This document shows positions 5,903 through 50,745 of a stretch of DNA of 64,000 nt, in pieces; the stretch's first letter is position 1; each line of letters begins with the position of its first letter. The notes under the pieces were generated by a model. The model searched no databases. It had not been told where the DNA came from and saw only the letters and a list, made by a program, of their open reading frames with translations. Position numbers and translations under genes: made by a program. The stretch comes from an uncultured Gammaproteobacteria bacterium (lineage in GTDB: Bacteria; Patescibacteriota; Microgenomatia; UBA1406; HO2-37-13b). The stretch covers positions 72,389 through 136,388 of the forward strand of contig CAYPSA010000001.1 in NCBI GenBank assembly GCA_964413645.1, given 5' to 3'.

Positions 5903-6000
5903 GTCATCCTGAGAGAGCACTGTCATTCTGAGCGCAGCGAAGAATCTAGGTGTGAATAGATCGGAGATTCTTCATCCCACTTTGCGGGATTCAGAATGAC
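5903..6000. repeat. Family A hairpin repeats: truncated 5' arm, one plus-strand unit and one inverted unit
   Basis: gtcatcctgagagagca / gtcATTCTGAgcgcagcGAAGAATctaggtgtg / inverted agattcttcatcccactttgcgggattcagaatgac. Confidence 0.9.
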
Positions 6001-6027
6001 AAAAGACGATCAAAATGACATTCATAT

Positions 6028-7434
6028 ATGAAAAAAACCACCCAAAAAGACGACATCGATTTCGACTACAAATATGGCTTTTCAATGCCCGACACGTCTG
6101 TTTTTCAAACAAAACGAGGCATTTCCCCCGAGGTTGTTTTTCAAATTTCTAAAATAAAAAATGAACCTGATTGGATGGCAAAAAAACGCTTAAAAGCCTA
6201 CGAAATTTTTCTTGAAAAAAAAATGCCGCCGTGGGGTGCCGATCTTTCCAAAATAGATTTTGATGATATTGTCTATTTTATTCGAGCTACCGATAAACAA
6301 AAAACTTCATGGGAAGATCTGCCTGCCGAAATTAAAGACACCTATGATCGTATTGGAGTTCCTGAAGCGGAAAAAAAGTTTTTAGCTGGCGTTTCTGCGC
6401 AGTACGAGTCGGAGGTAGTATATGAGAGTGTTAATAAGGAGCTTACTAAACAAGGCGTACTTTTCTGCGACATGGATACTGCTGTTGTAAAGTATCCTGA
6501 AATTGTTAAAGAGTATTTTGGAACATTAATTCCTGCTCGTGATAATAAATTTTCCGCACTCAATACTGCCGTGTGGTCCGGAGGATCATTTGTATATGTT
6601 CCAAAAGGTGTTCATGTAAAATTACCACTTCAAGCTTATTTTCGAATTAATGCAGAACGTTTTGGTCAATTTGAACGAACGCTTATTATCGCGGATGAAG
6701 GTTCAAGCGTTCATTACATCGAAGGTTGTACTGCTCCTATTTACACAACCGACTCCCTTCATTCAGCGGTCGTAGAAATTTTCGTTAAAAAAAATGCACG
6801 AGTTCGCTACACTACCGTTCAAAATTGGAGCAACAATGTTTACAACTTGGTTACCAAACGAGCGTCGGCTGATGAAAATGCAATTATGGAATGGATTGAT
6901 TGTAATATTGGATCAAAAGTTACCATGAAATATCCGTCGGTGTATTTAAAAGGGGAAGGCGCGCGTGGAGAAGTTCTTTCAATTGCCTATGCAGGAGCCG
7001 GCCAACATCAAGATGCGGGGGCCAAAATGTTTCATTTTGCACCAAACACATCAAGTCGAATTGTTTCAAAATCAATTTCAAAAAATGGAGGACGAACTTC
7101 ATATCGAGGTTTAGTTCAAATACAACCAAATGCTACGAATTCATCAGTTTACGTTTCGTGTGATGCGTTACTGCTCGATGAAGATTCCCGTTCCGATACC
7201 TATCCTACGATGAGAATTATGGAAAATGATGTCCAAGTTCAACACGAAGCAACCGTTGAAAAATTAGGTGAAGAAAAATTATTTTACTTAACCAGTCGGG
7301 GTATTACTAAAAATGATGCAGAAGGAATTTTAGTTAATGGATTTATTGAACCCGTAACCCGCGAAATTCCATTGGAATATTCAATTGAATTAAATCGACT
7401 AATGCAGTTAGAAATGAGTGGAAGTGTAGGATAA
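6028..7434 (+). CDS. sufB: Fe-S cluster assembly protein SufB
   Basis: 468 aa; FVYVPKGVHV, ERTLIIADEGSSVHYIEGCTAP typical of SufB. Confidence 0.95.
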   Translation: MKKTTQKDDIDFDYKYGFSMPDTSVFQTKRGISPEVVFQISKIKNEPDWMAKKRLKAYEIFLEKKMPPWGADLSKIDFDDIVYFIRATDKQKTSWEDLPAEIKDTYDRIGVPEAEKKFLAGVSAQYESEVVYESVNKELTKQGVLFCDMDTAVVKYPEIVKEYFGTLIPARDNKFSALNTAVWSGGSFVYVPKGVHVKLPLQAYFRINAERFGQFERTLIIADEGSSVHYIEGCTAPIYTTDSLHSAVVEIFVKKNARVRYTTVQNWSNNVYNLVTKRASADENAIMEWIDCNIGSKVTMKYPSVYLKGEGARGEVLSIAYAGAGQHQDAGAKMFHFAPNTSSRIVSKSISKNGGRTSYRGLVQIQPNATNSSVYVSCDALLLDEDSRSDTYPTMRIMENDVQVQHEATVEKLGEEKLFYLTSRGITKNDAEGILVNGFIEPVTREIPLEYSIELNRLMQLEMSGSVG

Positions 7435-7436
7435 CT

Positions 7437-8033
7437 ATGAAATTCACATACATCACTGAAGGAGAAAAAGGCAAATACTCTGTTACCCAACCAGGGGAGT
7501 CGATTTTTTTTATTTATAATTATTCTGGAGCAGTTGAAATTTCTATTAAATCTCCGAATGCGAAAGTTTACATTTACGGCGTGTATATTGGTAAAAAGAA
7601 CGACAATTTTACCCTTAATACTATTCAACATCACAAAGTTGGCGAGAGTGTTTCGGATTTACTTATTAAGGGAATTTTTTTCGATGAATCTAAATTTCAT
7701 TATGAAGGGTTAATTCGAATCGACAAAAAAGCACAAAAGTCGAATGCGTATCAAAAAAATCAGAACTTAGTAATGTCGAAAGAAGTCTTTGTCGATTCTC
7801 GACCTTACTTGGAGATTTTGGCAAATGATGTTCGGTGCACTCACGGTTCCACAACAGGACAGTTGGACAAAGAGCAATTGTATTTTGCAAAAACTCGGGG
7901 ATTATCAGAAAAGGAGGCTCAAAAAATGCTTCTTGAAGGATTCATTGGCGACATATTCAATAAAATGGAAGAAGTAGGGTTAGAAAAGTCCGTCATCCTG
8001 AGCGTAGCGAAGGATCTAGGTGTGGAGAATTGA
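7437..8033 (+). CDS. sufD: SufD-like Fe-S assembly protein (short, 198 aa)
   Basis: SufB/SufD-family core (VRCTHGSTTGQLDKEQLYFAKTRG); follows sufB by 2 nt; last 13 codons (VILSVAKDLGVEN) are repeat-derived. Confidence 0.8.
   Translation: MKFTYITEGEKGKYSVTQPGESIFFIYNYSGAVEISIKSPNAKVYIYGVYIGKKNDNFTLNTIQHHKVGESVSDLLIKGIFFDESKFHYEGLIRIDKKAQKSNAYQKNQNLVMSKEVFVDSRPYLEILANDVRCTHGSTTGQLDKEQLYFAKTRGLSEKEAQKMLLEGFIGDIFNKMEEVGLEKSVILSVAKDLGVEN
7992..8025 (+). repeat. Family A unit inside the sufD 3' end
   Basis: gtcATCCTGAgcgtagcGAAGGATctaggtgtgg; translated VILSVAKDLGV. Confidence 0.9.
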
Positions 8034-8034
8034 T

Positions 8035-9243
8035 ATGTTCAATACACAACAAACAAAAAAGGATTTCCCAATTTTCACTAAAAACCCTGATCTGGTCTAT
8101 TTAGATTCTACTGCAACTTCACTTAAACCCCGAGTGGTTCTTGATAAACTGAATGAGTACTACACGCAATACTCTTCCAATATTCATCGTGGAATTTACG
8201 ACATTGCCGAAAAAGCCACGGCAGAATATGAATTGGCCCGGCAAAAAGTTGCAGGTTTTATTCACGCTTCACCAGAAGAAGTGATTTTTACATCCGGAAC
8301 TACTGATTCCATCAATCTTCTTGCGTCGAGTTTGGGAGAGGAAGTCGGGGCCGGTGATGAAATTTGTGTAACGATTGCTGATCATCATTCAAATTTTGTT
8401 CCGTGGCAACAACTGGCGCTTAAAAAAGGAGCAACGTTTAAAGCTCTGCCTGTCGAAGACGTCATTCTGAGCGTAGCGAAGAATCTAGGTGTTAGGACCA
8501 AAATTCTGGCCCTTCCCCTCATTTCCAACACCCTCGGTACCATTTTCCCAATTAAAGAAATTGCTCTTCAAGCTCGAAAAATAAATCCTGACATATGTGT
8601 AATTGTAGACGCTGCGCAAAGCGTTCCTCATAGAGCAATCAACGTTCAGAGTCTGGGAGCTGACTTTGTTGCTTTTTCAGGGCATAAAATGGTAGGTCCA
8701 ACAGGTATTGGAGTATTGTGGGGTCGACGGGATATTTTGGATCGTATGCCACCCTATAAATTCGGTGGGGAAATGATCGAATCTGTTTCGGTAGAAAAAA
8801 CAACTTTTAACTCGCTTCCTCATAAGTTTGAAGCAGGGACTCCACCGATAGCTCAGGCCATAGGACTCGGGGCAGCGGTCGACTATTTGCAGAGTGTAGG
8901 GATGGAGAAAATTGAGAAACATGAAAAAGCTCTCACTTCATTTGCTCGACAGGAGCTGGAGAGAGAGTTTGGCGAGAAAATTACCATCTACGGTCCAAGT
9001 GCAGGCGAAGACAGAGGGGGATTGCTTTCATTTACATTCGGAAATTATCATGCACATGATGTTGCTCAAATTCTTTCTGAGGATAATGTCGCTGTTCGAG
9101 CGGGTAACCATTGTACTATGCCATTACATACGGCTCTTGGTGTTGTAGCAACAGTCCGTGCAAGTTTTTATATGTATAATGACGAATCCGACGTTAAAAA
9201 ACTTGTTACCAGTTTACATAAAGTTACCAACCTCTTAGGTTGA
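8035..9243 (+). CDS. sufS: Cysteine desulfurase SufS (class V aminotransferase)
   Basis: FSGHKMVGPTGIG (PLP Lys), RAGNHCTMPLH (catalytic Cys); ATG 8035 preferred to GTG 8020 (after sufD stop, GGAG 7 nt upstream); repeat unit in frame at 8461-8493. Confidence 0.93.
   Translation: MFNTQQTKKDFPIFTKNPDLVYLDSTATSLKPRVVLDKLNEYYTQYSSNIHRGIYDIAEKATAEYELARQKVAGFIHASPEEVIFTSGTTDSINLLASSLGEEVGAGDEICVTIADHHSNFVPWQQLALKKGATFKALPVEDVILSVAKNLGVRTKILALPLISNTLGTIFPIKEIALQARKINPDICVIVDAAQSVPHRAINVQSLGADFVAFSGHKMVGPTGIGVLWGRRDILDRMPPYKFGGEMIESVSVEKTTFNSLPHKFEAGTPPIAQAIGLGAAVDYLQSVGMEKIEKHEKALTSFARQELEREFGEKITIYGPSAGEDRGGLLSFTFGNYHAHDVAQILSEDNVAVRAGNHCTMPLHTALGVVATVRASFYMYNDESDVKKLVTSLHKVTNLLG
8461..8493 (+). 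repeat. Family A unit in frame inside sufS
   Basis: gtcATTCTGAgcgtagcGAAGAATctaggtgtt; translated VILSVAKNLGV. Confidence 0.9.
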
Positions 9244-9271
9244 CAGTGCCTGTTCAACCTCTTAGGTTGCC
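9227..9271. repeat. Twin 15-nt palindrome repeat (family B), copy 2
   Basis: Palindromes CAACCTCTTAGGTTG at 9228-9242 and 9255-9269 with CAGTGC linker; the first supplies the sufS C-terminus NLLG and TGA. Confidence 0.9.
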
Positions 9272-9330
9272 ACCTTTGTCATTCTGAGCGGTACCTTTGT
9301 CATTCTGAGCGGAGCGAAGAATCTCCGTAT
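9272..9330 (+). repeat. Family A: 21-bp tandem duplication of the left end followed by a complete unit
   Basis: acctttgtcattctgagcggt / acctttgtcATTCTGAgcggagcGAAGAATctccgtat. Confidence 0.9.
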
Positions 9331-9340
9331 AACAAAAAAT

Positions 9341-9700: not shown

Positions 9701-9803
9701 ATTATTCACATCTTCTACGTAGCATATAATAATTGCCTCAGTTATAAGTAAGAACAATTTCCTCCTCCTTGATCTCACCTCTCAAAAACAGTACAAATAA
9801 TAC

Positions 9804-11570
9804 ATGTCTCATTTTCTGTGGAAAATTGGGGGTCAGGCAGGGTTTGGTGTCATGACGACTGGATTGTCATTTTCCAAAATTGCCACAAAAGTTGGCTACC
9901 ATATTTTCGATTGTTTTGAATATCCTTCGCTCATTCGAGGCGGGCATAATACGTATGATGTCATTCTCTCGCCGGAACCTGTGCACGCAATACAGCACGA
10001 CATTAATGTTCTTGTTTGTTTGAATAAAGAAACTTTTGAGCTCCACAAACACCGTCTCACTAAGGATTCAATTGTCATTTACGACGAGAATAGCTTCACG
10101 CCTTCCGAGAGTGGCTATAAGATAATTCATCTTCCTTTTAAAACAATGCTATTTGAAAATAAGGCATCTATGGTTATGGAAAATAATATTGCACTTGGAT
10201 GCTCTTTAGCAGTCCTAGACTGGCCGTATCAGATCCTCGATGATATGATCGAGCAAACATTCGCCGATAAAGGAGCTTCGGTTGTTTCTTTAAATAAAAA
10301 AATCTCTAAACTCGCATATGATTACGTCATAAAAAATCACGGCGATTTCATTATCCACGACTTTCCTGTTCTTAAAAAAACTGAACCAAAAATTGTCCTT
10401 ACTGGAAATGACGCATTTGCATATGGCGCTATTGCTGCCGATTGTCGACTATACGCTGCCTACCCCATGACTCCTTCCTCAACCGTTCTTACCACGCTTG
10501 CAGCGCATGCTCAAAAAACGGGCATGGTTGTGCGTCATGCTGAAGATGAAATATCAGTTATTAATACTGCGCTAGGAGCGAGTACTGCCGGTGTTCGCGC
10601 GGCTTGTGGAACATCGGGCGGAGGATTTGCGCTTATGGTTGAATCAATTTCATTTGCAGGAATTGCAGAAATCCCACTGGTTATTTTTATGAGTCAGCGT
10701 CCGGGACCAGCTACCGGACTGCCCAGTTGGACAGAACAAGGGGATTTGCTGTTTACCGTTCATGCAGGGCACGGGGAATTTCCAAAAATTGTACTAGCTC
10801 CCGGGGACCCATACGAAATGTACGCATTAACATTAAAAGCATTTGATTTAGCCGACTATTATCAAACGCCAGTTATTGTGCTGTCAGATAAACATCTTTC
10901 AGAAAGTAATATGAGTATTAATCACCTCGACCTTAAGCTCCTTAACAGAGCATATTCGCCTGATTCTGGAAAGCTCATTTGGAAAGCTAATCACTATCAA
11001 CGCTATGCCGATGTTCCCGATGGAATTTCCCCCCGCCTGGTTCCTGGATACCCCGGACAGTTTTATCAAGTGAATTCGTATGAGCATACAGCAGATAGCC
11101 ATACTACTGAAGATGCTCAAGAGAGAGTTATCCAAGTTAACAAGAGAAACAGAAAAACACAAACATATTTAGCAAAACATTTTGCTATGCCCGAAATTTT
11201 TGGTGATATAAATAAATCTGAAATTGTTTTTGTTTCATGGGGCAGTAATAAGGGGGCGATTTTGGAAGCACAGCGCATTTTAGCGGGCAAAGGAGAGAAA
11301 ACTGCGTTTATTCATTTCACCCACGTGTTTCCACTTGATGAGAGCAGGGTTGCCGCGCTCTTTATATTAAAGAAGAGATTCATTTTGATTGAAAATAATA
11401 GTCAGGGTCAGTTCGCCAAGCTCCTACGTGAGCAAACGGGTGTACATCTGAAAGAAAAAATTCTCAAGTACAACGGCCGCCAAATCCATGTTGAAGAAAT
11501 TGTTGATTACATTATTCCGGACTCCTCTGTCACTCTGAGCAGAGCGAAGAGTCTAGGTGTTAAACCATGA
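9804..11570 (+). CDS. 2-oxoacid:ferredoxin oxidoreductase, alpha (gamma-alpha fused) subunit
   Basis: 588 aa; GGQAGFGVMT N-terminus, YPMTPSS motif; 4-nt overlap with beta subunit gene; C-terminal 13 aa repeat-derived. Confidence 0.85.
   Translation: MSHFLWKIGGQAGFGVMTTGLSFSKIATKVGYHIFDCFEYPSLIRGGHNTYDVILSPEPVHAIQHDINVLVCLNKETFELHKHRLTKDSIVIYDENSFTPSESGYKIIHLPFKTMLFENKASMVMENNIALGCSLAVLDWPYQILDDMIEQTFADKGASVVSLNKKISKLAYDYVIKNHGDFIIHDFPVLKKTEPKIVLTGNDAFAYGAIAADCRLYAAYPMTPSSTVLTTLAAHAQKTGMVVRHAEDEISVINTALGASTAGVRAACGTSGGGFALMVESISFAGIAEIPLVIFMSQRPGPATGLPSWTEQGDLLFTVHAGHGEFPKIVLAPGDPYEMYALTLKAFDLADYYQTPVIVLSDKHLSESNMSINHLDLKLLNRAYSPDSGKLIWKANHYQRYADVPDGISPRLVPGYPGQFYQVNSYEHTADSHTTEDAQERVIQVNKRNRKTQTYLAKHFAMPEIFGDINKSEIVFVSWGSNKGAILEAQRILAGKGEKTAFIHFTHVFPLDESRVAALFILKKRFILIENNSQGQFAKLLREQTGVHLKEKILKYNGRQIHVEEIVDYIIPDSSVTLSRAKSLGVKP
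11529..11561 (+). repeat. Family A unit inside the 3' end of the oxidoreductase alpha gene
   Basis: gtcACTCTGAgcagagcGAAGAGTctaggtgtt; translated VTLSRAKSLGV. Confidence 0.9.
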
Positions 11571-12430: not shown

Positions 12431-12455
12431 CTTTTAGCAAACCCATTGCTATACT
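12427..12455 (+). promoter_or_regulatory. lon promoter
   Basis: TTGACT-17 nt-TATACT, 11 nt before ATG 12467. Confidence 0.7.
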
Positions 12456-12466
12456 GCTAACTACCT

Positions 12467-14896: not shown

Positions 14897-14899
14897 TTA

Positions 14900-15010: not shown

Positions 15011-15805
15011 ATGGCACAAAAAAATGTAACGATTCCGCTTAACCAGAACACTATTCTCGTCGTCGCGTTAATCATTATGGCTTTCTTCGCAGGATACCTA
15101 TTCAATAAGAATAAGGCATTAGAAGAGAAAGCAAAAGTAGCAGTTGCTCCTGAAGCTCAAGAACAAAAGGCCGCTCCAATTTCAGCAGAAAAAGTAAATA
15201 AACTATTTGAAAAGGGATTTATTACTTTAGGAGATAAGAATGCAAAGATAAAATTTGTAGAAGTTTCTGATCCAAGCTGTCCTTACTGCCACGTAGCAGC
15301 TGGAAAAAATCCAGAACTTGCAGGTTCGGTTGGGCCACAATTTAAGTATGAATCTGAAGGTGGCACATACGTTCCTCCAGTTACCGAAATGCGAAAACTT
15401 GTAGAAGAAGGTAAAGCAGCATTTACCACCATTTATGCAAATGGACATGGAGCGGGAGAATTAGCAATGCAGGCGCTATATTGTGCTCATGATGATGGAA
15501 ATTTTTGGGAAGCACATGACATGCTTATGACAAACGCTGGTTACGAACTTATCAACAATGTCGTCAAAAACGATGTTGCAAATACAGGTAAGTTAGTCGA
15601 ATTCCTCGGTAACAAAATTAATGCTGCAAATGTAACCAAGTGTTTAACCGATAAAAAATATGTAGCACGTCTTACAACAGAACAACAACTTGCCATGGAC
15701 TTGGGTTTCCAAGGAACCCCATATTTCATCGTAAACACAACACCATTTGCGGGTGCATATAGCTACACCGACATCAAACCTACGGTTGATGGATTGTTGA
15801 AGTGA
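15011..15805 (+). CDS. Membrane-anchored DsbA-like thiol:disulfide oxidoreductase
   Basis: N-terminal TM helix and thioredoxin-fold CPYC motif; stop codon overlaps first unit of the repeat hotspot. Confidence 0.75.
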   Translation: MAQKNVTIPLNQNTILVVALIIMAFFAGYLFNKNKALEEKAKVAVAPEAQEQKAAPISAEKVNKLFEKGFITLGDKNAKIKFVEVSDPSCPYCHVAAGKNPELAGSVGPQFKYESEGGTYVPPVTEMRKLVEEGKAAFTTIYANGHGAGELAMQALYCAHDDGNFWEAHDMLMTNAGYELINNVVKNDVANTGKLVEFLGNKINAANVTKCLTDKKYVARLTTEQQLAMDLGFQGTPYFIVNTTPFAGAYSYTDIKPTVDGLLK

Positions 15806-16010
15806 CCCTGAGCTTGTCGAAGGGTCATCCTGAGCGACCCAGAGCATACGCGAGGGGAGTCGAAGGATCCCCGCTATCTGTCATTCTGAGCGCTTTGCCT
15901 GCCGCAGGTAGGTAGCGAAGAATCCCAATTGTGTCGTCGTACTTACGGCGCGAGATATCTGATCCGCCAGCTGGCGGAGAGACCATTTGACCTGCCTGCC
16001 GGCAGGCAGG
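15804..16010 (+). repeat. Repeat hotspot: three family A units with free-standing inner palindromes
   Basis: Units at 15804-15826, 15824-15870 and 15880-15925; hairpin gaTCCGCCagctGGCGGAgaga at 15961-15982; palindrome CCTGCCTGCCGGCAGGCAGG at 15991-16010. Confidence 0.9.
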
Positions 16011-19053: not shown

Positions 19054-20640
19054 ATGTTCTGGGCTGATCAATTAATACAAAACCTTGATAAAAAGTCTCA
19101 TCATCGTGTTGATGACATGAAAACTCCTTCAGGGCATGCTCATGCTGGGTCGTTACGCGCCATTGCAACACATGGCATTGTGTATGAAGCTATGAAAAAA
19201 GCAGGCTATGACGTTGATTTTACGTATGTAGTAAACGACATGGATCCAATGGATGGACTTCCCGTATATTTAGCTGAAGAAGAATACTCTCAACATATGG
19301 GAAAACCGCTTTTTACCATTCCTGCTCCCGATAAAAAATCTGAAAGTTTTGCTCATCAGTTTGCACACGAATATATAGGCGCATTTAATCACATTGGATT
19401 TACGCCAGAAATCTTGTGGTCTCACGAGTTGTATCAAAGTGGAGTCATGGATACGTATATTCGTCAGGCGCTTGATGGTGTTAAAAAAATCCGAGAAATT
19501 TATAAAAAAGTTGCTGATCAAAATAAACCAGAAGGTTGGTATCCGTTCCAGGTAATTTGTCCGCAATGCGGCAAAGTTGGGTCAAGTTTGGTAACTGATT
19601 GGGATGGAACCCTGGTAACATACGAGTGCAAACCTAATTTGGTAAAGTGGGCAATTGGTTGCGGTGCTGCTGGAACTATTTCTCCGTTTGGAGGAACCGG
19701 TAAACTCATGTGGAAAGTAGACTGGGCTGCGCATTGGGCTCACATTGGTGTAACTGTCGAAGGCGCAGGAAAAGATCATTTTAGCGCAGGAGGAAGTCGA
19801 TATGTTTCGGCTGCAGTGATGCAAGAGGTATTTGAAAAGGAACCTCCTTTTGGTTTTTTGCATGAATTTTTATTAATAGGCGGAGCTAAAATGTCATCTT
19901 CAAAAGGAAATGCAGTAACAGCTGCGGAATTGGTAACACTGCTCCCACCAGCCATCGGGAAATTCTTATTTGTTCGTACAGCGTATCAGCGGGCAATAAA
20001 TTTCGACCCAACGCTTTCCTCAACAATCCCTGATTTGTTCGATGAATATGATCGCTGTGCAAAAGCATTTTTTGAATCCGGAACAGAAACTGATATGGGA
20101 AGAATGTATGAAGCTGCTCAAATCGGGGAGCCCCCGTCCGCCAGCGGGCGGATCGGAAAAATGCACCTTCCTCGCTTCCGACAAATTGCCACGCTCATTC
20201 AAATGCCTTCGGTTGATGTAATTAAGTTCTTTGAAGCGGAAAAGGGGAGTGCACTTACTCAATCTGAACAGGATTTATTGCAAGAACGAACTCACTTTGC
20301 AAGAATTTGGTTGGAAAAGTATGCCGATGAAAAAGATACGTTTGCAATTTCTAAAACGCTTCCTTCGCGCGCGTCTGAATTAGACACCGATCAAAAGCAG
20401 TTCCTTAGCAGAGTGGCGACTGATCTGCTAAGCGAGCACTATTCCGACGGCGAAGCCTTGCAACAAGCAATATTTGAGCTTTCAAAGACTGTTGGACTGC
20501 CCCCAAAAAAGGCATTTCAGGCAATCTATTTGGTTCTCATAAACAAAGATCACGGACCAAAAGCTGGATGGCTATTATACGACGAAATGCAGAGCAATAA
20601 AGACTTCTTAATAGAACGATTTACGAGTGATATCGCCTAA
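19054..20640 (+). CDS. lysK: Lysyl-tRNA synthetase, class I
   Basis: FWADQL N-terminus, HIGH-like PSGHAHAGSLR, KMSSSKG (KMSKS); start moved from 19036 to ATG 19054 (TATAAT at 19042-19047). Confidence 0.88.
   Translation: MFWADQLIQNLDKKSHHRVDDMKTPSGHAHAGSLRAIATHGIVYEAMKKAGYDVDFTYVVNDMDPMDGLPVYLAEEEYSQHMGKPLFTIPAPDKKSESFAHQFAHEYIGAFNHIGFTPEILWSHELYQSGVMDTYIRQALDGVKKIREIYKKVADQNKPEGWYPFQVICPQCGKVGSSLVTDWDGTLVTYECKPNLVKWAIGCGAAGTISPFGGTGKLMWKVDWAAHWAHIGVTVEGAGKDHFSAGGSRYVSAAVMQEVFEKEPPFGFLHEFLLIGGAKMSSSKGNAVTAAELVTLLPPAIGKFLFVRTAYQRAINFDPTLSSTIPDLFDEYDRCAKAFFESGTETDMGRMYEAAQIGEPPSASGRIGKMHLPRFRQIATLIQMPSVDVIKFFEAEKGSALTQSEQDLLQERTHFARIWLEKYADEKDTFAISKTLPSRASELDTDQKQFLSRVATDLLSEHYSDGEALQQAIFELSKTVGLPPKKAFQAIYLVLINKDHGPKAGWLLYDEMQSNKDFLIERFTSDIA
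20123..20155 (+). repeat. GC-rich palindromic patch inside lysK (free-standing inner-hairpin type)
   Basis: cggggagcccccgTCCGCCagcgGGCGGAtcgg; same CCGCC/GGCGG hairpin as 15961, 48231 and 50344. Confidence 0.6.
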
Positions 20641-20661: not shown

Positions 20662-21939
20662 ATGCTTTCTATTGATTTTATCCGCGCCAACAAACAGAAA
20701 GTCGAACTTTGTTCGAAGAATAAAAACCGCCCGGTTGATGTAGATGCATTACTAGCTCTTGATGACACCCGCCGAGAACTTATTGGGAAAGTTCAAAAAC
20801 TCCGTGAAGAAAGAAATTCCCTTGCAAGTGCAGGGTCCGACGAGAGCGCACGGGAGCGCGGTCGAGTAATTAAGGATGAACTTAAGGTATTTGAAACAAA
20901 GCTTACCGATGTCGAAACAAAACTTAATGACCTCCTCTTAACCGTTCCAAATATATACCTTGATGAGGTTCCGGTAGGTACCGACGAATCGGGAAACCAA
21001 GAAATTTCAAAATGGGGAACTATTCCAGAATTTGACTTTACTCCCCTGTCGCATATTGAACTAGGAGAGAAGTTGGATCTAATTGATCTTAAACGAGGAA
21101 CGAAAGTATCGGGTTTTCGTGGCTATTTTCTAAAAAACCAAGCTGCTCAATTGCAAATGGCGCTCACGTTGTATGTTCTGAACAAACTCGTTAACAAAGG
21201 ATATACCCCGCTTCTTGCCCCCGCAGTTGTAAAAAGCTTTACAATGTTTGGAAATGGACAATTTCCGTGGGGAAAAGATGAAGTGTATGCGTTAAATGAT
21301 GACGATGCGTATTTGGCTGGTACTGCAGAAGTTCCAGTAACTGCGTATTTTGCTAATGAAACATTTTCGGAAAGTGACTTGCCCAAGAAGTTCGTCGCAT
21401 TTTCATCGTGCTTTCGCAGGGAAGCTGGCTCATATGGAAAAGATACAAAAGGCTTATACCGAGTTCATGAATTTTTCAAAATTGAACAGGTCATTATTGC
21501 AAAAGCGGATATAGAAGAAGCTAAAAAAATGCATGAAGAACTCCAACGAAATTGTGAAGAAATTCTACAAGAATTAAACCTCCCTTACCATATTTTACTT
21601 ATGTGCACCGGCGACATGGGAGAACCTCAAATGAAAAAGTATGATACTGAAGTCTGGATGCCATCTCGAAACGGGTACGGTGAAACAATGTCAAATTCCA
21701 TAATGGGCGATTTCCAAACACGACGTCTCAATATTAAATATAAAGATGCCCAAGGCAATATGCATTTCACCTATTCTCTAAACAATACTGCAATTGCATT
21801 TCCACGAATTCTGATTCCATTATTAGAAAATAACCAACAAAAAGACGGTTCAATTAAAGTTCCAGAAGTCCTTGTAAAATATACCGGCTTTGAAGTTATA
21901 TCTCCCCGTCATGCTGAGCGAAGCGAAGCATCTCAGTAA
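20662..21939 (+). CDS. serS: Seryl-tRNA synthetase
   Basis: Coiled-coil N-terminus, CFRREAGSYGKDTKGLYRVHEFFKIEQ motif 2; start moved from 20644 to ATG 20662; C-terminal RHAERSEASQ is repeat-derived. Confidence 0.93.
   Translation: MLSIDFIRANKQKVELCSKNKNRPVDVDALLALDDTRRELIGKVQKLREERNSLASAGSDESARERGRVIKDELKVFETKLTDVETKLNDLLLTVPNIYLDEVPVGTDESGNQEISKWGTIPEFDFTPLSHIELGEKLDLIDLKRGTKVSGFRGYFLKNQAAQLQMALTLYVLNKLVNKGYTPLLAPAVVKSFTMFGNGQFPWGKDEVYALNDDDAYLAGTAEVPVTAYFANETFSESDLPKKFVAFSSCFRREAGSYGKDTKGLYRVHEFFKIEQVIIAKADIEEAKKMHEELQRNCEEILQELNLPYHILLMCTGDMGEPQMKKYDTEVWMPSRNGYGETMSNSIMGDFQTRRLNIKYKDAQGNMHFTYSLNNTAIAFPRILIPLLENNQQKDGSIKVPEVLVKYTGFEVISPRHAERSEASQ
21908..21935 (+). repeat. Family A unit forming the serS 3' end
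   Basis: gtcATGCTGAgcgaagcGAAGCATctc; read in the alternative open frame as RHAERSEASQ-stop. Confidence 0.85.
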
Positions 21940-28606: not shown

Positions 28607-28612
28607 ATTATT

Positions 28613-28699
28613 GTCATTCTGAGAGAGCGTAGCGATCGAAGAATCTCGGTGTGGATAACACCTAGATCCTTCATCCCGCTTTGCGGGATTCAGGATGAC
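28613..28699. repeat. Family A full-size element (two inverted units) between eno and the exonuclease gene
   Basis: gtcATTCTGAgagagcgtagcgatcGAAGAATctcggtgtgg...gatccttcatcccgctttgcgggattcaggatgac. Confidence 0.9.
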
Positions 28700-28706
28700 T
28701 CTTGGT

Positions 28707-31504: not shown

Positions 31505-31544
31505 GGTTTTTGGTAAAATTGCTACCAGTATATTCCAAACTTTT

Positions 31545-31594
31545 GTCATTCTGAGTGAAGTCGAGGAGTCATTCTGAGCGGAGCGAAGAATCTC
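31545..31594 (+). repeat. Two tandem family A units upstream of tsaC-tsaE
   Basis: gtcattctgagtgaagtcgaggagtc (degenerate, G.T pairs) and gtcATTCTGAgcggagcGAAGAATctc. Confidence 0.85.
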
Positions 31595-32667: not shown

Positions 32668-32668
32668 T

Positions 32669-32741
32669 GTCATTCTGAACGAAGTGAAGAATCTGGGTGC
32701 TAGGTTCTAGTATCGAGATCCTTCGTTTCACTCAGGATGAC
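32669..32741. repeat. Family A full-size element (two inverted units) between tsaC-tsaE and tsaD
   Basis: gtcATTCTGAacgaagtGAAGAATctgggtgc...gatccttcgtttcactcaggatgac. Confidence 0.9.
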
Positions 32742-32748
32742 CAAAAAT

Positions 32749-33771
32749 ATGAAAATCCTATCAATCGATACTTCCTGCGACGAAACTTCTGTAGCCGTAA
32801 CAGAAGGCCAGAAGATTCTCGCAAATAAGATTTATTCGCAAGTTTTAATACATAAGAAATGGGGAGGAGTGGTCCCAGATCTGGCCAAACGCGCACATGA
32901 GGAGCATATCGATATTGTCGTAAATGAAGTGTTCAAAAAAGTTGAACAATCCAAAATTGATGCATTTGCCGTCACATATGGACCGGGTCTTGCTATAGCG
33001 CTTGAGGTAGGAATTTTGAAAGCAAAAGAACTATCTACACTATATAAGAAGCCACTTATTGCAGTTAATCATATGGAGGGGCATATTTATTCATGTTTTG
33101 CTCAAAATAGTGCAGGCAATCCTAAAAGCGAGTTTAAATTCCCATATATTGCGTTACTTATCTCGGGCGGGCACACCGAACTTGTTTTGTTTAAAGATCA
33201 TGGTATCTATGAAATCCTTGGTCAAACGGTCGATGATGCTGCGGGGGAAGCATTAGATAAAGCCGCAAAGCTTATTGGCTTAGGATATCCTGGCGGTGCG
33301 GTAATTGAAACGCTTGCTTTAAAAGGTAATAAAACATTCTTAAAATTTCCACGTCCTATGAAAGGATCAAAAGATCTTAACTTTTCATTTTCAGGACTTA
33401 AGACATCGTTTTATTACTACTATCGAGAATTGTCTGATAAAGACAAAACCTCGCAGCTGTATGATTTAGCCGCATCATACCAAGAAGCAGTTTTCGACAG
33501 TATCCTTCATAAACTTCAAAAAGCAATTGTTCAAACAGGAGTATCATCACTTGTTGTCGGTGGGGGAGTTGGAGCTAATAAATATCTGCGTGATCGAATT
33601 CGGGAACTTGCTAAAAAACATTCAGGAAGTGTGCGGTTTCCTGCGTATAAATATCTGTATGGCGATAATGCGGCCATGATTGGTATAGCTGCTCACTTTA
33701 AAGCTCTAAAAGGAGATTATGTGAATGATTTGACGAGTCTTCATAGAGTGCCCCGACTATCGTTGTCTTAG
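32749..33771 (+). CDS. tsaD: tRNA N6-adenosine threonylcarbamoyltransferase TsaD
   Basis: ILSIDTSCDETS, AVNHMEGHI, LLISGGHTEL, GGGVGANKYLR; alternative start 32737 lies inside a repeat arm. Confidence 0.92.
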   Translation: MKILSIDTSCDETSVAVTEGQKILANKIYSQVLIHKKWGGVVPDLAKRAHEEHIDIVVNEVFKKVEQSKIDAFAVTYGPGLAIALEVGILKAKELSTLYKKPLIAVNHMEGHIYSCFAQNSAGNPKSEFKFPYIALLISGGHTELVLFKDHGIYEILGQTVDDAAGEALDKAAKLIGLGYPGGAVIETLALKGNKTFLKFPRPMKGSKDLNFSFSGLKTSFYYYYRELSDKDKTSQLYDLAASYQEAVFDSILHKLQKAIVQTGVSSLVVGGGVGANKYLRDRIRELAKKHSGSVRFPAYKYLYGDNAAMIGIAAHFKALKGDYVNDLTSLHRVPRLSLS

Positions 33772-33846
33772 ACCCTGAGCGCAGTCGAAGGGTCATCCTG
33801 AGGGAGAGATCCGCCCGCTGGTGGAGACCGAAGGATCTAGGTGTTA
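33771..33846 (+). repeat. Two tandem family A units downstream of tsaD
   Basis: gACCCTGAgcgcagtcGAAGGGTc and gtcATCCTGAgggagagatccgcccgctggtggagaccGAAGGATctaggtgtt; same pairing of unit types as at 15804-15870. Confidence 0.9.
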
Positions 33847-39536: not shown

Positions 39537-40654
39537 GATAAATTGCTTTCGATGTACTGTGTAAACTTTTTAATAAATTTGTCTTTACTAAACTTCATTG
39601 CCTGTTTTGAACCTTCCAATTTTGTTGAACTAGCTAGAGTGTAGTACATTGATTCAAACTTTTCAAGCGCTTCTGTAAGCGACGTTTCTGTTTGTTCAAG
39701 GAATAAAATACCCGTAATGTTGGGAATAATTGTCTCAACTACTCCGCTATTGCTATATGAAATTACAGGACAACCAAAAAACTGCGCTTCTATGGCTGTA
39801 TATCCAAATTCTTCTTTTTGAGGCATAATAAGCGCTTTTGCGTGGGTATAGTACTCTGCAAGTTCTTCGTCGGTAGCTTTTTGAACAAATGTTATATTTT
39901 TCCCAGCTAAAGACGTAAGTTTTTGCAGCTGTGTGCCCGAACCAATAACAATGAGGTTTTTTTTGAGCGTATTACATGTTTTTATAACCAGGTCGACTCT
40001 CTTGTATTGCTCTAATCGTGACACCACCAAGTAATACTCTCCACGCGATCTCAGGGTGCTTGGAGTAGAAGTTTTGAATTCTTTCCAGTAATTTACATCA
40101 AAAGGGGGGTATATAACCTTGTTGTCTCTTTGATAATACTTTTTAATATTTGCTGAAACTATATTGGAAATTCCAATAATCTTGTCTGGTCGTTGAGCAG
40201 CGATACGATCCCAGTATTTAAGATATTTAACGTAGAACGTAGGTCTTGTGAAGCGTTCCAATGACGTCCTATATGCTTCTGGCTGATCCCATAAAAATCG
40301 TGTAGGTGAGAGCATGTAGCTTACGTGTAGTGTATCTGGACGAGTTACAATGCTCTTGGCAAACGACGAAGTAACCGATATGACGATATCGTATGAAGAA
40401 AGGTTCAGGCTTTCAAATGCAAATGGGTATAAAGGAACACAAAACGTGCGGTTCGCTCTTACGAGCTCCGGGAGCTCGGAAATGAATGTTGTTCGAAAAT
40501 GCATGTCTTTTGCCCATGGAGCTTTTTGTGCATCATAATATGAAGTATAAAAGTCGGCTTTAGGATACATTTGTGCAAACGTTAAAAGTACTCGTTCAGC
40601 CCCTCCCCATTTGTCTACCCAATCGTATACAATCGCAATTTTTTGAGTTTTCAT
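39533..40654 (-). CDS. Glycosyltransferase family 4
   Basis: C-terminal EEFGYTAIEAQFFGCPVISYSNSGVVE (E-x7-E) motif. Confidence 0.8.
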   Translation of the reverse strand: MKTQKIAIVYDWVDKWGGAERVLLTFAQMYPKADFYTSYYDAQKAPWAKDMHFRTTFISELPELVRANRTFCVPLYPFAFESLNLSSYDIVISVTSSFAKSIVTRPDTLHVSYMLSPTRFLWDQPEAYRTSLERFTRPTFYVKYLKYWDRIAAQRPDKIIGISNIVSANIKKYYQRDNKVIYPPFDVNYWKEFKTSTPSTLRSRGEYYLVVSRLEQYKRVDLVIKTCNTLKKNLIVIGSGTQLQKLTSLAGKNITFVQKATDEELAEYYTHAKALIMPQKEEFGYTAIEAQFFGCPVISYSNSGVVETIIPNITGILFLEQTETSLTEALEKFESMYYTLASSTKLEGSKQAMKFSKDKFIKKFTQYIESNLS

Positions 40655-40660
40655 AGTATT

Positions 40661-40758
40661 GTCATTCTGAGCGCCCTGCCTGCCGGCAGGCAGGTAGCGA
40701 AGAATCTCGGTGTGATTAACACCCAGATTCTTCAGTCGCTTTGCTCCTTAAGAGTGAC
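40661..40758. repeat. Family A full-size element with a 20-nt palindrome plugged into the core
   Basis: gtcATTCTGAgcgcCCTGCCTGCCGGCAGGCAGGtagcGAAGAATctcggtgtg...agattcttcagtcgctttgctccttaagagtgac. Confidence 0.9.
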
Positions 40759-43354: not shown

Positions 43355-43360
43355 ATTTTT

Positions 43361-43406
43361 GTCAACCTCTTAGGTTGCCAGTGCGTAGTCAACCTCTTAG
43401 GTTGCC
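43361..43406. repeat. Twin 15-nt palindrome repeat (family B), copy 3
   Basis: Palindromes CAACCTCTTAGGTTG at 43363-43377 and 43390-43404, CAGTGC linker, 27-bp phasing. Confidence 0.9.
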
Positions 43407-48212: not shown

Positions 48213-48220
48213 AATAAATT

Positions 48221-48277
48221 CAACCTCTTTGTCCGCCAACTGGCGGAGACTGTGCCTACTTAAGCCCGCTGGTTGTC
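48221..48277 (+). repeat. Composite: half family-B palindrome, CCGCC/GGCGG hairpin and family-C motif
   Basis: caacctcttt-gTCCGCCaactGGCGGAgac-tgtgcctacttaagcccgctggttgtc. Confidence 0.75.
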
Positions 48278-49747: not shown

Positions 49748-50684
49748 AGGTTTTTGATAGATAGCTACTATTAATTATCTTTCCAATTGTAATACTAACA
49801 AGTGCCTTAAATTGTAGCATAATCCGTAACACATGTAATTGCAAGCGGCTATTATGTTTTTTGTAAAAATATAAAAAGCCTTTAAATACCTGAATTATCG
49901 GTTCACTGCGCCCATTGCTTGAAGCACTTCCCAAGTGAATTATACGTGAATTTGGATAAAATCCTGTCAGAAGATTATGTTTTTTTGCTCTGTATAGCAA
50001 GTCAATTTCTTCCATATACATAAATATGGCCTCATCAAATCCACCCAACATTTCAAAATCACTTTTTGCACACATAAAACAAGCTCCCGAAACCCAATCT
50101 ACTTGTTTGGTAAACCGTGGTGAAAAGCGGGTAAGACCATAATAATCACCTCGTAAAAATAGGGCAGCAAACACTACGGGTAGTGTATAAAAGTGTCCGG
50201 CCGAAGCTTGTGGCGTTTTCCCGTCTTTTTCTAAAAGCTTAGGACCGACGAAAGAGTATATATTTAAGTCGCTGGTAAAAAAGGAATACAAGGAGCTTAT
50301 ACTGTCAACCCCGTCAGTCTCAGCGATACCTTTGTCATTCCGATCCGCCATCTGGCGGAGAGGAATCTCAGCTCTGGCACCCAGGATCTCCGTATCCGAA
50401 TTCAAAAATAACAAATGTTTCCCCATTGCCTGTTTCACCGCCGCATTATTTCCCTTCCCAAATCCCAAGTTTTCTTTACTTTCTACTATCTTAATTGAGA
50501 GTGAAGAGTGCTGTTTTTTAAACTCGTGCAGCATAGCAATCGAATTATCAGTGGAGTCATTATCTAAGACAACAATTTCATATTTAAATGAAGCTTCCTC
50601 TAAGCCTAAAACAATCGTTTGCAGGCACTTTTTGGTGATTTGAGCAGTATTGTATGAAACTATGATGATCGATAGATCTACCAT
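49713..50684 (-). CDS. Glycosyltransferase family 2 (carries a 69-72 nt in-frame repeat insertion)
   Basis: MVDLSIIIVSYNT, VLDNDSTDNS, LFLNSD; ATG 50684 used (TGgTATACT box 6 nt upstream) instead of ORF-track 50885. Confidence 0.8.
   Translation of the reverse strand: MVDLSIIIVSYNTAQITKKCLQTIVLGLEEASFKYEIVVLDNDSTDNSIAMLHEFKKQHSSLSIKIVESKENLGFGKGNNAAVKQAMGKHLLFLNSDTEILGARAEIPLRQMADRNDKGIAETDGVDSISSLYSFFTSDLNIYSFVGPKLLEKDGKTPQASAGHFYTLPVVFAALFLRGDYYGLTRFSPRFTKQVDWVSGACFMCAKSDFEMLGGFDEAIFMYMEEIDLLYRAKKHNLLTGFYPNSRIIHLGSASSNGRSEPIIQVFKGFLYFYKKHNSRLQLHVLRIMLQFKALVSITIGKIINSSYLSKTYAQAYGITKNN
50326..50394 (+). repeat. Family A unit (antisense to the gene) inserted in frame in the GT2 gene
   Basis: acctttgtcATTCCGAtccgccatctggcggaGAGGAATctc...atctccgtat; same left and right ends as the intergenic copy at 9293-9330. 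Confidence 0.85.
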
Positions 50685-50690
50685 TACATT

Positions 50691-50699
50691 AGTATACCA
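50691..50699 (-). promoter_or_regulatory. Extended -10 box heading the 12-gene glycan operon
   Basis: Minus strand TGgTATACT, 6 nt before ATG 50684. Confidence 0.6.
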
Positions 50700-50715
50700 G
50701 GTGAAACATGCCAGT

Positions 50716-50745
50716 GTCATCTCGAGCGTGACGAAAGATCTCAGC
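50716..50745 (+). repeat. Degenerate family A unit
   Basis: gtcatctcgagcgtgacgaaagatctc. Confidence 0.6.

Follow-up and report, generated by a model that had tools for sequence, protein, structure and literature searches.

Repeat units in the window

The window, the 64-kb stretch of DNA analyzed here, carries genes for SufB, SufC, SufD, SufS, NifU, a POR subunit, class I LysRS, SerRS, SecA, enolase, a 5'-3' exonuclease, FtsH, TsaC-TsaE, TsaD and a GT2 protein. A repeat with the consensus T/C-GTC-AYYCY-GA-core-GA-RGRRT-C-T is found between and within these genes. It folds on one strand only. An unpaired (T/C)GTC tag is followed by a 5-bp helix starting with A-T. Inside the helix are two sheared G.A pairs, then a d(GCGNAGC) mini-hairpin or another insert, and a C-T tail follows at the 3' end. 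The GA...GA inside the helix is present in every unit of the window, and the 5' tag and the 3' C-T are conserved among them. In nearest-neighbor DNA folding the short unit reaches only -1.9 to -2.7 kcal/mol (z about 0), which counts against a hairpin element. The nearest-neighbor DNA model is known to miss the GNA mini-hairpin motif.

The census comprises nine short-core and about 12 long-core copies, five left-arm half-units and four free palindromes. The short-core pattern GTCAYNCYGA-GCGNAGC-GARGNRTC, with at most two mismatches, matches nine times, compared to 0.00 expected from 100 shuffles of the window. These units start at 5922, 7992, 8461, 9299, 11529, 21908, 31568 and 32669 on the plus strand, and one occupies 32717-32741 on the minus strand. 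Long-core clamps start at 15824, 15880, 23534, 28613, 33792, 40661 and 50334 (plus), and two are at 5966-6000 and 28665-28699 (minus). ACCCT units start at 15805 and 33772, and left-arm half-units at 5903, 9278, 31545 and 50311, with another at 6000-6019 (minus). All 14 single units are on the plus strand, 13 of them sense to the local gene. A first-pass annotation had described one modular hairpin family with four inverted doublets. All its positions were confirmed and both descriptions hold, but it had overlooked seven ORF-internal elements, the half-units, and the conserved tag and 3' C-T. About a quarter of all elements are intragenic.

In the SufC-SufB spacer, the half-unit TGTCATCCTGAGAGAGCAC (5903-5921, plus) lies directly 5' of the short-core unit T-GTC-ATTCT-GA-GCGCAGC-GA-AGAAT-CTA (5921-5948, plus). 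The latter is the left half of a head-to-head doublet. Its inverted partner (5966-6000, minus) has an ATTCT/AGAAT clamp and the core ATCCCGCAAAGTGGGAT, and is accompanied by the half-unit at 6000-6019. Downstream, a short-core ATCCT/AGGAT unit (7991-8018, plus) codes for the final 14 codons of SufD, VILSVAKDLGVEN, with the stop codon. Another, within SufS (8460-8487, plus), is translated as VILSVAKNLGV, and alignment to B. subtilis SufS places this insert in a variable surface segment. The SufS-NifU spacer (9277-9325, plus) contains a half-unit (9278-9298) and then a short-core unit (9299-9323). The ACTCT/AGAGT unit with core GCAGAGC (11528-11555, plus) supplies the POR subunit with its C-terminus, VTLSRAKSLGVKP, and stop codon.

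A cluster of three units (15802-15926, plus) follows. Its ACCCT unit (15805-15825) and long-core ATCCT unit (15824-15869) have one GTC in common, and in the triloop of its ATTCT unit (15880-15924) a 20-nt palindrome, CCTGCC..GCAGG, is nested. The free-standing palindromes TCCGCCAGCTGGCGGA and CCTGCCTGCCGGCAGGCAGG (15961-16010) are modules also found within unit loops. The palindrome TCCGCCAGCGGGCGGA (20134-20155) lies in frame within class I LysRS and reads PPSASGRIG. A short-core ATGCT/AGCAT unit (21907-21934, plus) provides the SerRS C-terminus, RHAERSEASQ and a stop codon, in the second open frame. The ATCCT/GGGAT unit (23533-23573, plus), which has one G.T pair and the core TCCGCC..GGCGGA, is in frame in SecA as VILSSAAGGSEGS, and is located in a hypervariable loop of the P-loop domain.

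Further along, a head-to-head doublet (28612-28700; 28613-28645 plus, 28665-28699 minus) separates enolase from the exonuclease gene. The divergent FtsH/TsaC-TsaE spacer (31544-31594, plus) holds a degenerate or half unit at 31545 and a short-core unit at 31568-31592. A head-to-head doublet with cores ACGAAGT and GTGAAAC (32668-32742) lies between TsaC-TsaE and TsaD. At 33769-33839 (plus), an ACCCT unit (33772-33793) and a long-core ATCCT unit (33792-33837) again have a common GTC. The doublet at 40660-40758 consists of a plus-strand unit (40661-40706) with CCTGCCTGCCGGCAGGCAGG nested in its loop and a degenerate inverted partner (40715-40758). The free-standing palindrome TCCGCCAACTGGCGGA (48231-48250) marks a gene junction. 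At 50311-50369 (plus), a degenerate half-unit (50311) precedes an ATTCC/GGAAT unit with core TCCGCC..GGCGGA (50334-50367). This unit is antisense within the minus-strand GT2 gene; the reading frame continues through it (EIPLRQMADRNDKGIAETDG), and the Pfam GT2 match ends at this insert.

Copies surviving in this gene-dense genome either preserve the frame or lie in spacers. In SufD, SufS, POR, SerRS, SecA, LysRS and GT2 they have therefore become tails at the C-terminus or insertions within loops.

Conservation and turnover of the units

When the helix or GA positions were left free, scans detected the unit in over 10 phyla as well as in IMG/VR contigs. Among its hosts are CPR (Candidate Phyla Radiation), Chloroflexota, Acidobacteriota, Nitrospirota, Bacteroidota and Cyanobacteria. 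In the genome-collection scan with four helix positions free, the helix is fully Watson-Crick in 142 of 167 matches, in at least 10 versions. All four free pairs vary on both sides (48 distinct sequences). There are 50 double-sided cells, compared to 14.8 +/- 3.4 after shuffling (0/500), and slid controls collapse. This covariation supports the earlier claim of selection on pairing. The accompanying "rather than sequence" needs a caveat: helix versions propagate as copies, so that the counts are not independent events, and N. meningitidis (Nm) SsnA is reported to require stem sequence in addition to shape. With the GA positions free, GA/GA is kept in 141 of 145 matches and the Y/R choices are complementary in 144, indicating that the tandem GA is conserved and not incidental, as had been proposed. 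The flanks have T or C at -1 (95%) and T at +26 (81%) and are otherwise unconserved. The clamp accepts cores of 5-70 nt, with 208 non-7-nt cores compared to 32 in the control. Head-to-head order is general, a partner being downstream in 127 of 280 cases and upstream in 16. Gene 3' ends are favored (22 convergent vs 9 divergent spacers).

Close relatives (88-94% SecA identity) differ in which units, half-units and nested palindromes they carry, including within SecA and the SerRS C-terminus. At 15880, relative L122 has plain GCGTAGC in place of the 20-nt palindrome, in agreement with the interchangeable core first proposed, and L124 lacks the whole unit. L122 also has the 28612-28700 doublet, which is replaced by unrelated sequence in L124, and carries one more 17-nt half-unit between the ACCCT and ATCCT units of 33769-33839. 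The 32668-32742 doublet is missing in L124, where TsaC-TsaE and TsaD overlap (ATGA). The LysRS palindrome site is 9 nt shorter in L124 and L125. The SerRS C-terminus of relatives has one or two additional 18-nt half-units and/or a long-core unit. The SecA unit has an altered form in P0001 and P0002 and is missing in P0003 and P0004. No clean target-site duplication was seen in these filled/empty comparisons, which counts against mobility.

Association with small GIY-YIG nucleases

In many phyla, CPR among them, units enclose genes for small single-domain GIY-YIG proteins homologous to SsnA of Neisseria, one of the Ssn family of single-strand DNA nucleases. In 80 metagenome loci chosen by the SsnA-like protein alone, a unit lies within 400 nt of the gene in 54 and on both sides in 39. 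Unit density near the gene is 2.7 and 3.5/kb, compared to 0.10/kb elsewhere. The associated proteins are 47% identical (E = 7e-17) to the N. gonorrhoeae protein whose gene is flanked by the Neisseria Transformation Sequence (NTS). GIY-YIG ORFs adjoin units in loci L040 and L043, and CPR loci with an SsnA-like gene beside units include L040, L327 and L329. In 6 of 25 homologues, an inverted unit supplies the ..DSSLRSE terminus and stop codon. No other recurrent neighbor protein family was found around units. Pfam and jackhmmer searches detected no Ssn/GIY-YIG gene, either in the window or across some 25 kb from syntenic relatives, which counts against the proposed Ssn link. As noted at first pass, they also found no transposase in the window; six of its ORFs have no Pfam match.

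SsnA of Neisseria, Wolbachia and others binds a folded single strand and cuts a few nt 5' of the tag. It recognizes neither dsDNA nor RNA nor the reverse strand, and it accepts any loop (PMC11893778). The 5-70 nt core tolerance of the clamp matches this loop tolerance. Seven helix versions coexist in the window, which, set against the stem-sequence requirement of Nm SsnA, counts against recognition by an Ssn protein.

We infer that Ssn proteins cleave the units here and that the units are mobile. An Ssn encoded elsewhere in the genome, or formerly present, would recognize the units in single-stranded DNA, which may arise during replication, transcription or DNA uptake. Units, head-to-head doublets and nested palindromes may then derive from an IS-like unit-ssn-unit cassette, spreading as its non-autonomous copies. 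How they would move is conjecture. SsnA is a nuclease, and we know of no Ssn protein shown to perform strand transfer or transposition, which counts against this scheme.

Relationship to known repeats and alternative explanations

The first-pass annotation could not assign the units to a named family, but they fit the CGTC/TGTC REP superfamily (PMC3733652) and Ssn-related motifs (SRM; PMC11893778). We propose, with a probability of about 0.7, that they belong to the CGTC/TGTC-tagged REP class, as hairpin elements that function as DNA, and that within it they form a tandem-G.A ("GA-clamp") variant of SRM/NTS. Like the SRM, which include NTS (CGTCATTCCCGCGMAVGCGGGAATCYRG), they are oriented hairpins that carry an HGTC-AY tag at the 5' end and a C immediately after the palindrome; the loop is dispensable, and a genome holds hundreds of copies. 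Both flank a single-domain GIY-YIG gene of about 95-105 aa on both sides, in 49-68% of cases here and in 42-71% in the paper; Chenal et al. 2025 found SRM around ssnA in 71% and 42% (PMC11893778). However, the SRM stem is continuous and GC-rich, whereas our units have tandem G.A and an AT-rich 5-bp helix. Their core consists either of a GNA-triloop mini-hairpin or of nested clamps or palindromes, their host range (CPR and the other phyla named above) also sets them apart, and their cleavage is predicted. The published SRM search string has no match in the window and does not accept the canonical unit. NTS are reportedly intragenic in only 2%, compared to about a quarter of the window elements. 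Both points count against the Ssn connection.

Neisseria dRS3 and the Rickettsia elements RPE-4 and RPE-6 belong to the CGTC-tagged superfamily (Di Nocera, De Gregorio, Rocco 2013, PMC3733652). Its members share with our units an unpaired CGTC/TGTC tag, a stem of about nine stacked positions beginning A-T, T-A, and a short 3' tail. Head-to-head dimers dominate, tail-to-tail ones are rare, copies occur in frame within genes, and there is no RAYT. In our units, however, G.A pairs take up two of nine stem positions, the 4-5 nt loop is replaced by 3 nt or by a long insert, and the tail reads C-T-C rather than CCA. The unit strings are not in the supplementary lists of that survey, which covers mainly alpha-proteobacteria.

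It is unlikely that the units are structured RNA elements (mRNA 3' stabilizers, processing sites or protein-binding hairpins) with DNA copies as by-products. Compensatory changes and non-Watson-Crick GA/GA are classic RNA signatures, and the sense bias of the single units and the preference for unidirectional and convergent spacers fit them. Yet Rfam yields no match even at E<=10, sense:antisense is 22:15 between co-directional genes and 12:11 within ORFs at 120 loci of other phyla, and C.A mismatches (10) are no rarer than T.G (6), so that the small-RNA angle taken at first pass is not sustained. Many copies are translated, in three different frames. The linked protein class binds ssDNA, not RNA (PMC11893778), and the GCGNAGC fold is markedly stabler as DNA, d(GCGAAGC) melting at 76.5 C (PMC13037366).

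We hold equally improbable an enzyme-independent turnover by slippage, template switching or gene conversion at ssDNA hairpins, with GIY-YIG genes merely a favored landing site; such turnover has been suggested for yeast mitochondrial GC clusters. Left-arm arrays do vary in copy number among 94%-identical genomes, as in slippage; insertions show microhomology (CAGGAA at the SecA site, GTAG at 15880) instead of clean duplications, and nested copies are located in loops. A near-identical 27-nt consensus in more than 10 phyla, with a tag and tail that stay unpaired and conserved, nevertheless needs a sequence-specific partner, and the 30-fold enrichment flanking one protein family is unexpected for passive landing.

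Mobilization in trans by a RAYT (HUH Y1 transposase), as for REP/REPIN of enterobacteria and pseudomonads, is less probable still. REP/BIME elements are likewise short, imperfect extragenic hairpins with a doublet as the likely replicative unit, ssDNA recognition and one trans-acting gene flanked by repeats. The head-to-head excess (127 vs 16) and gene 3'-end preference look the same, and a mechanism acting on single strands would be in keeping with the strong strand bias of the window. But the tag is (T/C)GTC, not GTAG/GTGG, no HUH signature was found in 0.9 Mb around 165 units, and GIY-YIG is the only recurrent neighbor family found. In the survey of Di Nocera et al., no RAYT had CGTC REPs on its flanks (PMC3733652). 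A RAYT or IS200-type mobilizer, suggested at first pass, gives way to the small GIY-YIG nuclease. Selection of VILSxAKxLGV as a peptide module, suggested by the common frame of the SufD, SufS, POR and SecA copies, is refuted: most copies lie between genes, the SerRS copy is read in another frame and the GT2 copy in the antisense frame, conservation is at the nucleotide-pairing level, and frame sharing is expected because just two frames of the sense strand are open.

REP and Rickettsia palindromic elements, named at first pass as the closest analogues, were the right neighborhood. Rickettsia palindromic elements are reportedly inserted in frame in protein genes (PMC3733652; original report Ogata et al. 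2000). There as here, the housekeeping proteins of a reduced genome accommodate palindromic repeats as additional peptide segments. RPE-1, however, is about 100-150 nt long and unrelated in sequence, whereas inserts here are 25-45 nt and often provide a C-terminus and stop codon. The commonest core is exactly the mini-hairpin DNA d(GCGNAGC)/d(GCGNNAGC), and 8-nt cores include GCGAGAGC; earlier examples of this motif come from phage and plasmid origins and from promoters rather than from the center of a clamp repeated throughout a genome (PMC13037366). Features new to this analysis are the conservation of the tandem G.A, a core formed by the GNA mini-hairpin, the nesting of elements, arrays of left arms, and copies lying in frame within housekeeping genes of CPR. 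This stretch of the tiny genome of a CPR bacterium is peppered with what is probably an uncatalogued variant of Ssn-type repeats, even in frame within essential genes.

The GA-clamp unit in the window and across phyla

The window has a G+C content of 39%. It carries housekeeping genes (Suf system, POR, Lon, class I LysRS, SerRS, SecA, enolase, FtsH, TsaC-TsaE and TsaD), envelope genes (glycosyltransferases and an mraZ-mur cluster) and three tRNAs. The proteins nearest to its SecA are named Candidatus Roizmanbacteria or Microgenomates, which places the window in the Candidate Phyla Radiation (CPR).

The first-pass annotation described a hairpin repeat in this region, and each of its unit coordinates was verified in the sequence. 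The short-core form GTCAYNCYGA-GCGNAGC-GARGNRTC occurs in 9 copies in the window with up to two mismatches, compared to 0.00 expected. Together with long-core and ACCCT units, minus-strand partners, five half-units (the left arm alone) and four free palindromes (core modules outside units), about 30 elements are found at 16 loci, and seven helix versions coexist. All 14 single units are located on the + strand. As a marker of the replication strand, GC skew (0.023) does not suffice to separate replication from transcription in the window, and it tracks gene strand at third codon positions.

Compensatory covariation had been proposed for the outer helix. A pattern with fixed core and GA dinucleotides but four free helix positions was run against one genome per species and recovered at least 120 loci. 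Hosts among the matches listed include Acidobacteriota, Chloroflexota, Bacteroidota, Planctomycetota, Nitrospirota, Gemmatimonadota, Firmicutes, Proteobacteria and several CPR groups. All four free positions are Watson-Crick paired in 142 of 167 hits among the matches listed, with at least 10 helix versions represented. In 48 distinct sequences all four pairs vary on both sides, in agreement with the proposal. Double-sided cells number 50, compared to 14.8 ± 3.4 after shuffling (0/500), and the count collapses in slid controls. The first helix pair is A-T in every sequence and the second is T-A in 39 of the 48. The stem has nine stacked positions, with G.A rather than base pairs at positions 6 and 7.

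A second scan, of IMG/VR contigs, left both GA dinucleotides free. Among the matches listed, 141 of 145 hits have GA/GA next to the helix, as had been noticed in the window, and 144 of 145 make complementary Y/R choices. The opposite strand turns GA/GA into TC/TC, so the unit is strand-specific. Its strand-specific single-stranded DNA (ssDNA) fold is kept by pairing. Beyond the 25-mer, only three flanking positions are conserved across phyla: -1 (T 83%, C 12%), +26 (T 81%) and +27 (C 55%). This makes (T/C)GTC-[helix-GA-core-GA-helix]-C-T the functional unit.

The core of the unit is freely replaceable. Clamp cores of 5-70 nt include 208 that are not 7 nt long, spread over all phyla, compared to 32 in a reverse-not-complement control, which upholds the earlier description of an interchangeable core. 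Among them are GGAGCGNAGCGAC, foreign palindromes, and clamps within clamps such as (CCCTGA)n...(GAAGGG)n. For the short unit, nearest-neighbour DNA folding was uninformative (z about 0). The d(GCGNAGC) sequence forms a DNA mini-hairpin of exceptional stability (Tm 76.5 °C), its RNA counterpart being less stable. Standard energy models miss it (PMC13037366), hence the weak energy calculated for the short unit.

A partner in inverted orientation, at most about 100 nt away, lies downstream of 127 of 280 units and upstream of only 16. Doublets are therefore head-to-head, with termini TGTCAT...ATGACA, and tail-to-tail pairs are the 16. Within a doublet, one unit's left arm, GA included, and the partner's outer arm show perfect complementarity. 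For the 89-nt doublet at 28612-28700, an extended four-way fold is predicted on either strand (-22 kcal/mol, z = -5.5). One to three left-arm half-units, each GTCAYYCYGAGC plus 5-10 nt, stand ahead of about 10% of units and recur every 17-23 nt. Seven tandem 105-nt repeats with one unit each (helix ATGTT/AACAT) are found in a Bacteroidaceae MAG (locus L019, 3563-4217).

Two doublets in the window, at 28600-28623 and 40648-40671, start 5 nt upstream of the minus-strand start codons of enolase and a GT4 gene. Their junctions are near-identical (TTTTCATATTATTGTCATTCTGAG and TTTTCATAGTATTGTCATTCTGAG), and the hairpin sits at the expected ribosome-binding site. A second, unrelated repeat is also present. 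The perfect palindrome CAACCTCTTAGGTTG occurs in 6 exact copies, compared to 0.13 expected, as doublets with copies 27 nt apart at 2156-2197, 9228-9269 and 43363-43404. Two of these doublets are directly upstream of minus-strand start codons (PGK and a hexapeptide transferase), and on the minus strand an AAGAGG Shine-Dalgarno-like box is half-buried in the stem.

Association with Ssn-type GIY-YIG genes

SsnA is a 94-aa single-domain GIY-YIG protein that binds and cuts the NTS (CGTCATTCCCGCGMAVGCGGGAATCYRG), the Neisseria version of the Ssn-related motifs (SRM) (PMC11893778). Binding and cutting are restricted to ssDNA and to the top strand. The three nucleotides 5′ of the NTS palindrome count for cleavage, the 3′ C is the key binding base, and the loop is dispensable. 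In many phyla, ssnA homologues have at least one SRM nearby in 71% of cases and SRM on both sides in 42% (PMC11893778). The tag and tail of the GA-clamp unit are conserved at exactly the positions critical for SsnA.

A jackhmmer search over the ORFs of 2 Mb of DNA revealed three GIY-YIG genes. Those at L040 (Gracilibacteria) and L043, two unit-bearing loci, each abut a unit, and the C-terminus of the L040 protein, DSSLRSE*, is an inverted unit. The third, at L057, is YhbQ-like and located about 900 nt from a unit. The L040 protein has at least about 8,000 homologues at 55-73% identity, with hosts among the matches listed in Patescibacteria, Dehalococcoidia, Nitrospirota, Clostridia, Ignavibacteriales, Planctomycetota and Proteobacteria; 6 of 25 sampled homologues share the ..SSLRSE* terminus. 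The associated proteins are 92-110 aa long, contain invariant Tyr, Gly, Arg, His, Glu and Asn columns, and match Pfam PF01541 with E = 4e-16 and 2e-10, the Ssn family itself being defined by CDD cd10448.

We then analyzed 80 metagenome loci chosen by the SsnA-like protein alone, with units strictly defined. A unit lies within 400 nt of the gene in 54 loci, and units are found on both sides in 39. Unit density is 2.7/kb upstream and 3.5/kb downstream of the gene, compared to 0.10/kb elsewhere in the same loci, a local enrichment of about 30-fold. The median gap is 31 nt before the start and 5 nt past the stop. The cassette around the SsnA homologue is arranged like an insertion sequence.

The SsnA-like family is 47% identical to the Neisseria gonorrhoeae gene (E = 7e-17), and the gonococcal homologue has a canonical NTS on both sides. 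GA-unit doublets flank a copy on a Planktothrix plasmid (69% identity), and left-arm arrays are placed symmetrically on their outside. This Planktothrix agardhii copy (NZ_LR882964.1, 18847-19131) and its unit arrays have an MmeI-type restriction-modification gene on one side and DISARM drmA on the other, within a defence island. In the CPR, ssn-like genes with units are found in Parcubacteria, inside a diversity-generating retroelement, and in other Patescibacteria, and the gene adjoins the palindrome CCTGCCTGCCGGCAGGCAGG, which is also present in the window. In the Parcubacteria loci (L326-L328, about 2500-4950, e.g. the 1.06-Mb contig JAXGYM010000001.1) the gene and its units lie between the bAvd and reverse-transcriptase genes, in the usual place of the template repeat. 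Thermodesulfovibrio yellowstonii, with a closed genome, is another carrier of the system. No Ssn gene is found in the 64-kb window or in about 25 kb of its syntenic relatives, and the best 120 homologues of the L040-type protein include no entry named Roizmanbacteria. Only 5 loci on IMG/VR contigs (L333-L337) contain an Ssn gene, so viruses are no obvious carrier of it. Units themselves are abundant on IMG/VR contigs (at least 120 loci, L126-L245).

The GA-clamp unit is filed as a probable variant of the SRM and of the CGTC/TGTC-tagged REP superfamily (CGTC-REP). Like SRM, it is a multi-copy imperfect inverted repeat of 20-50 nt able to form a hairpin. The oriented 5′ end HGTCWY is present in 10 of 12 window units and the 3′ end RNCYNB in 9 of 12, and the repeat family, although not the window, is linked to single-domain GIY-YIG genes. 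However, the published search string HGTCWYN(0-2)YYVSBRHN(0-5)WNVSBRGN(0-2)RNCYNB, which the NTS control passes, rejects canonical GA units and, searched on both strands, has 0 hits in the window. In CGTC-REPs the tag is unpaired (CGTC, TGTC or CCTC), the stem of 8-9 bp opens with A-T, T-A, and the tail is short; they form head-to-head dimers, have intragenic copies and are linked to no transposase (PMC3733652). Members include Neisseria dRS3 and Rickettsia RPE-4 and RPE-6 (PMC3733652). The GA-clamp unit shares the unpaired CGTC/TGTC tag, the head-to-head majority with rare tail-to-tail pairs, and the intragenic copies. It differs in the loop (GNA or 5-70 nt, compared to 4-5 nt) and the tail (C-T-(C), compared to CCA-like). 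The filing as a variant thus reflects the SRM hairpin, ends and ssn link and most CGTC-REP features, against the failed search string.

Copies inside genes and turnover among close relatives

Seven elements are located within ORFs of the window, and all keep the frame open. The copy in SufD is at the C-terminus, read as VILSVAKDLGVEN*. Alignment to B. subtilis SufS indicated that the internal copy in SufS takes the place of a variable surface segment. Copies form the C-termini of POR and, in a second open frame, of SerRS. SecA has a copy in a loop, LysRS contains an in-frame free palindrome, and a GT2 gene reads through an antisense copy. At the SecA C-terminus (24600-24790), a His-rich tail, HDHVHDHSGHDHSHAGHTHTHT, precedes the SEC-C zinc motif and varies in length among relatives.

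Gain and loss of units between close relatives is rapid. The syntenic relatives compared have SecA identities of 94% (L122), 90% (L125) and 88% (L124). The unit at 15880 has a 20-nt palindrome in its triloop; L122 has plain GCGTAGC, and L124 lacks the unit. An in-frame 24-nt CCTGCCTGCCGGCAGGCAGG insertion in the SecA N-terminal region is found in L122 and in none of the others. The SecA loop at 23534 has different forms of the unit, or none. The SerRS C-terminus has one unit, a half-unit plus a unit, or two half-units plus a long-core unit. A 70-nt doublet in the spacer between TsaC-TsaE and TsaD is missing in L124, where the genes overlap, and the TsaD/thioredoxin spacer of L122 has one extra 17-nt half-unit. 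No convincing target-site duplications were found when filled and empty sites were compared.

The doublet within 28607-28706 is also carried by L122. In L124 (17470-17570) it is replaced by about 95 nt of unrelated palindromic sequence of similar length, including CCCCATGGGG and TTGCTCGCAA. L122 has two extra genes between GreA and LysRS (4974-7057) that are absent in the window, one unknown and one of the histone-deacetylase family.

Possible mobility and its implications

Two other explanations were considered, an obligate function of the units as sense RNA and mobilization as REP/RAYT elements, the GTAG-tagged repeats with an HUH transposase. For the former, no Rfam covariance model matched the units at the gathering threshold in the whole window, where only the tRNAs pass, and a search of one doublet at E ≤ 10 gave nothing credible. 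In other phyla, single units are sense to flanking co-directional ORFs in 22 cases and antisense in 15, and occupy 22 convergent and 9 divergent spacers. C.A mismatches (10) are comparably frequent to T.G (6). For the latter, the window has no detectable transposase, as first noted, and the suggested RAYT or IS200-type mobiliser failed a regular-expression test, with 0 ORFs bearing an HUH motif in 0.9 Mb of unit loci plus the window. The tag is (T/C)GTC at the 5′ end of the hairpin rather than GTAG/GTGG. The lack of Rfam matches, HUH ORFs and a GTAG tag, the mixed orientation, and the similar C.A and T.G counts disfavor both explanations. Resemblances to the hammerhead, the k-turn, attC, oriT nic sites and primase sites were rejected on the core motifs: CUGANGA, a 3-nt bulge and GTTRRRY are absent, and the helix varies.

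All-against-all clustering of ORFs around 120 unit loci gave no recurrent family, since there are too few Ssn genes per unit for this approach to pick up. Full-text searches with unit strings and with the peptides they encode found no match, and the strings were not found in the supplementary material of PMC3733652.

The association with Ssn suggests how the units may work. Ssn would recognize them when the DNA is single-stranded, and doublets would be the form that moves or expands. In a CPR genome dense with genes, only copies that preserve the frame or lie in spacers would survive purifying selection. A bolder proposal, to which we give roughly one chance in four, is that the unit-ssn-unit cassette is an autonomous ssDNA transposon whose sole protein is the GIY-YIG nuclease of about 100 aa. 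Its MITE-like, non-autonomous offspring would be the hairpins, doublets and nested palindromes, which would still be actively colonizing genomes, and left-arm arrays and clamps nested in clamps would be traces left by cutting and rejoining at the GA/core junction. We know of no strand-transfer activity in Ssn. If the transposon proposal is true, the cassette would be a new kind of bacterial insertion sequence, whose colonization reaches essential CPR reading frames and phage-like contigs.

An orphan, very widespread repeat is now tied to a just-described enzyme family, and the published SRM pattern misses what may be among the largest branches of Ssn-linked repeats. As a module for ssDNA recognition, the GA clamp is compact and very stable, and its core can be swapped freely. 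This bears directly on the proposal to employ Ssn enzymes as programmable cutters of ssDNA. In the CPR, the repeat rewrites termini and surface loops of SecA, SufS, SufD and aminoacyl-tRNA synthetases. Since it differs among strains related at 88-94%, it is a source of protein length variation, spurious ORFs and assembly breaks, and should be masked in annotation. It also provides a tractable system for the spread of CGTC-type REPs and RPE-like in-frame palindromes.
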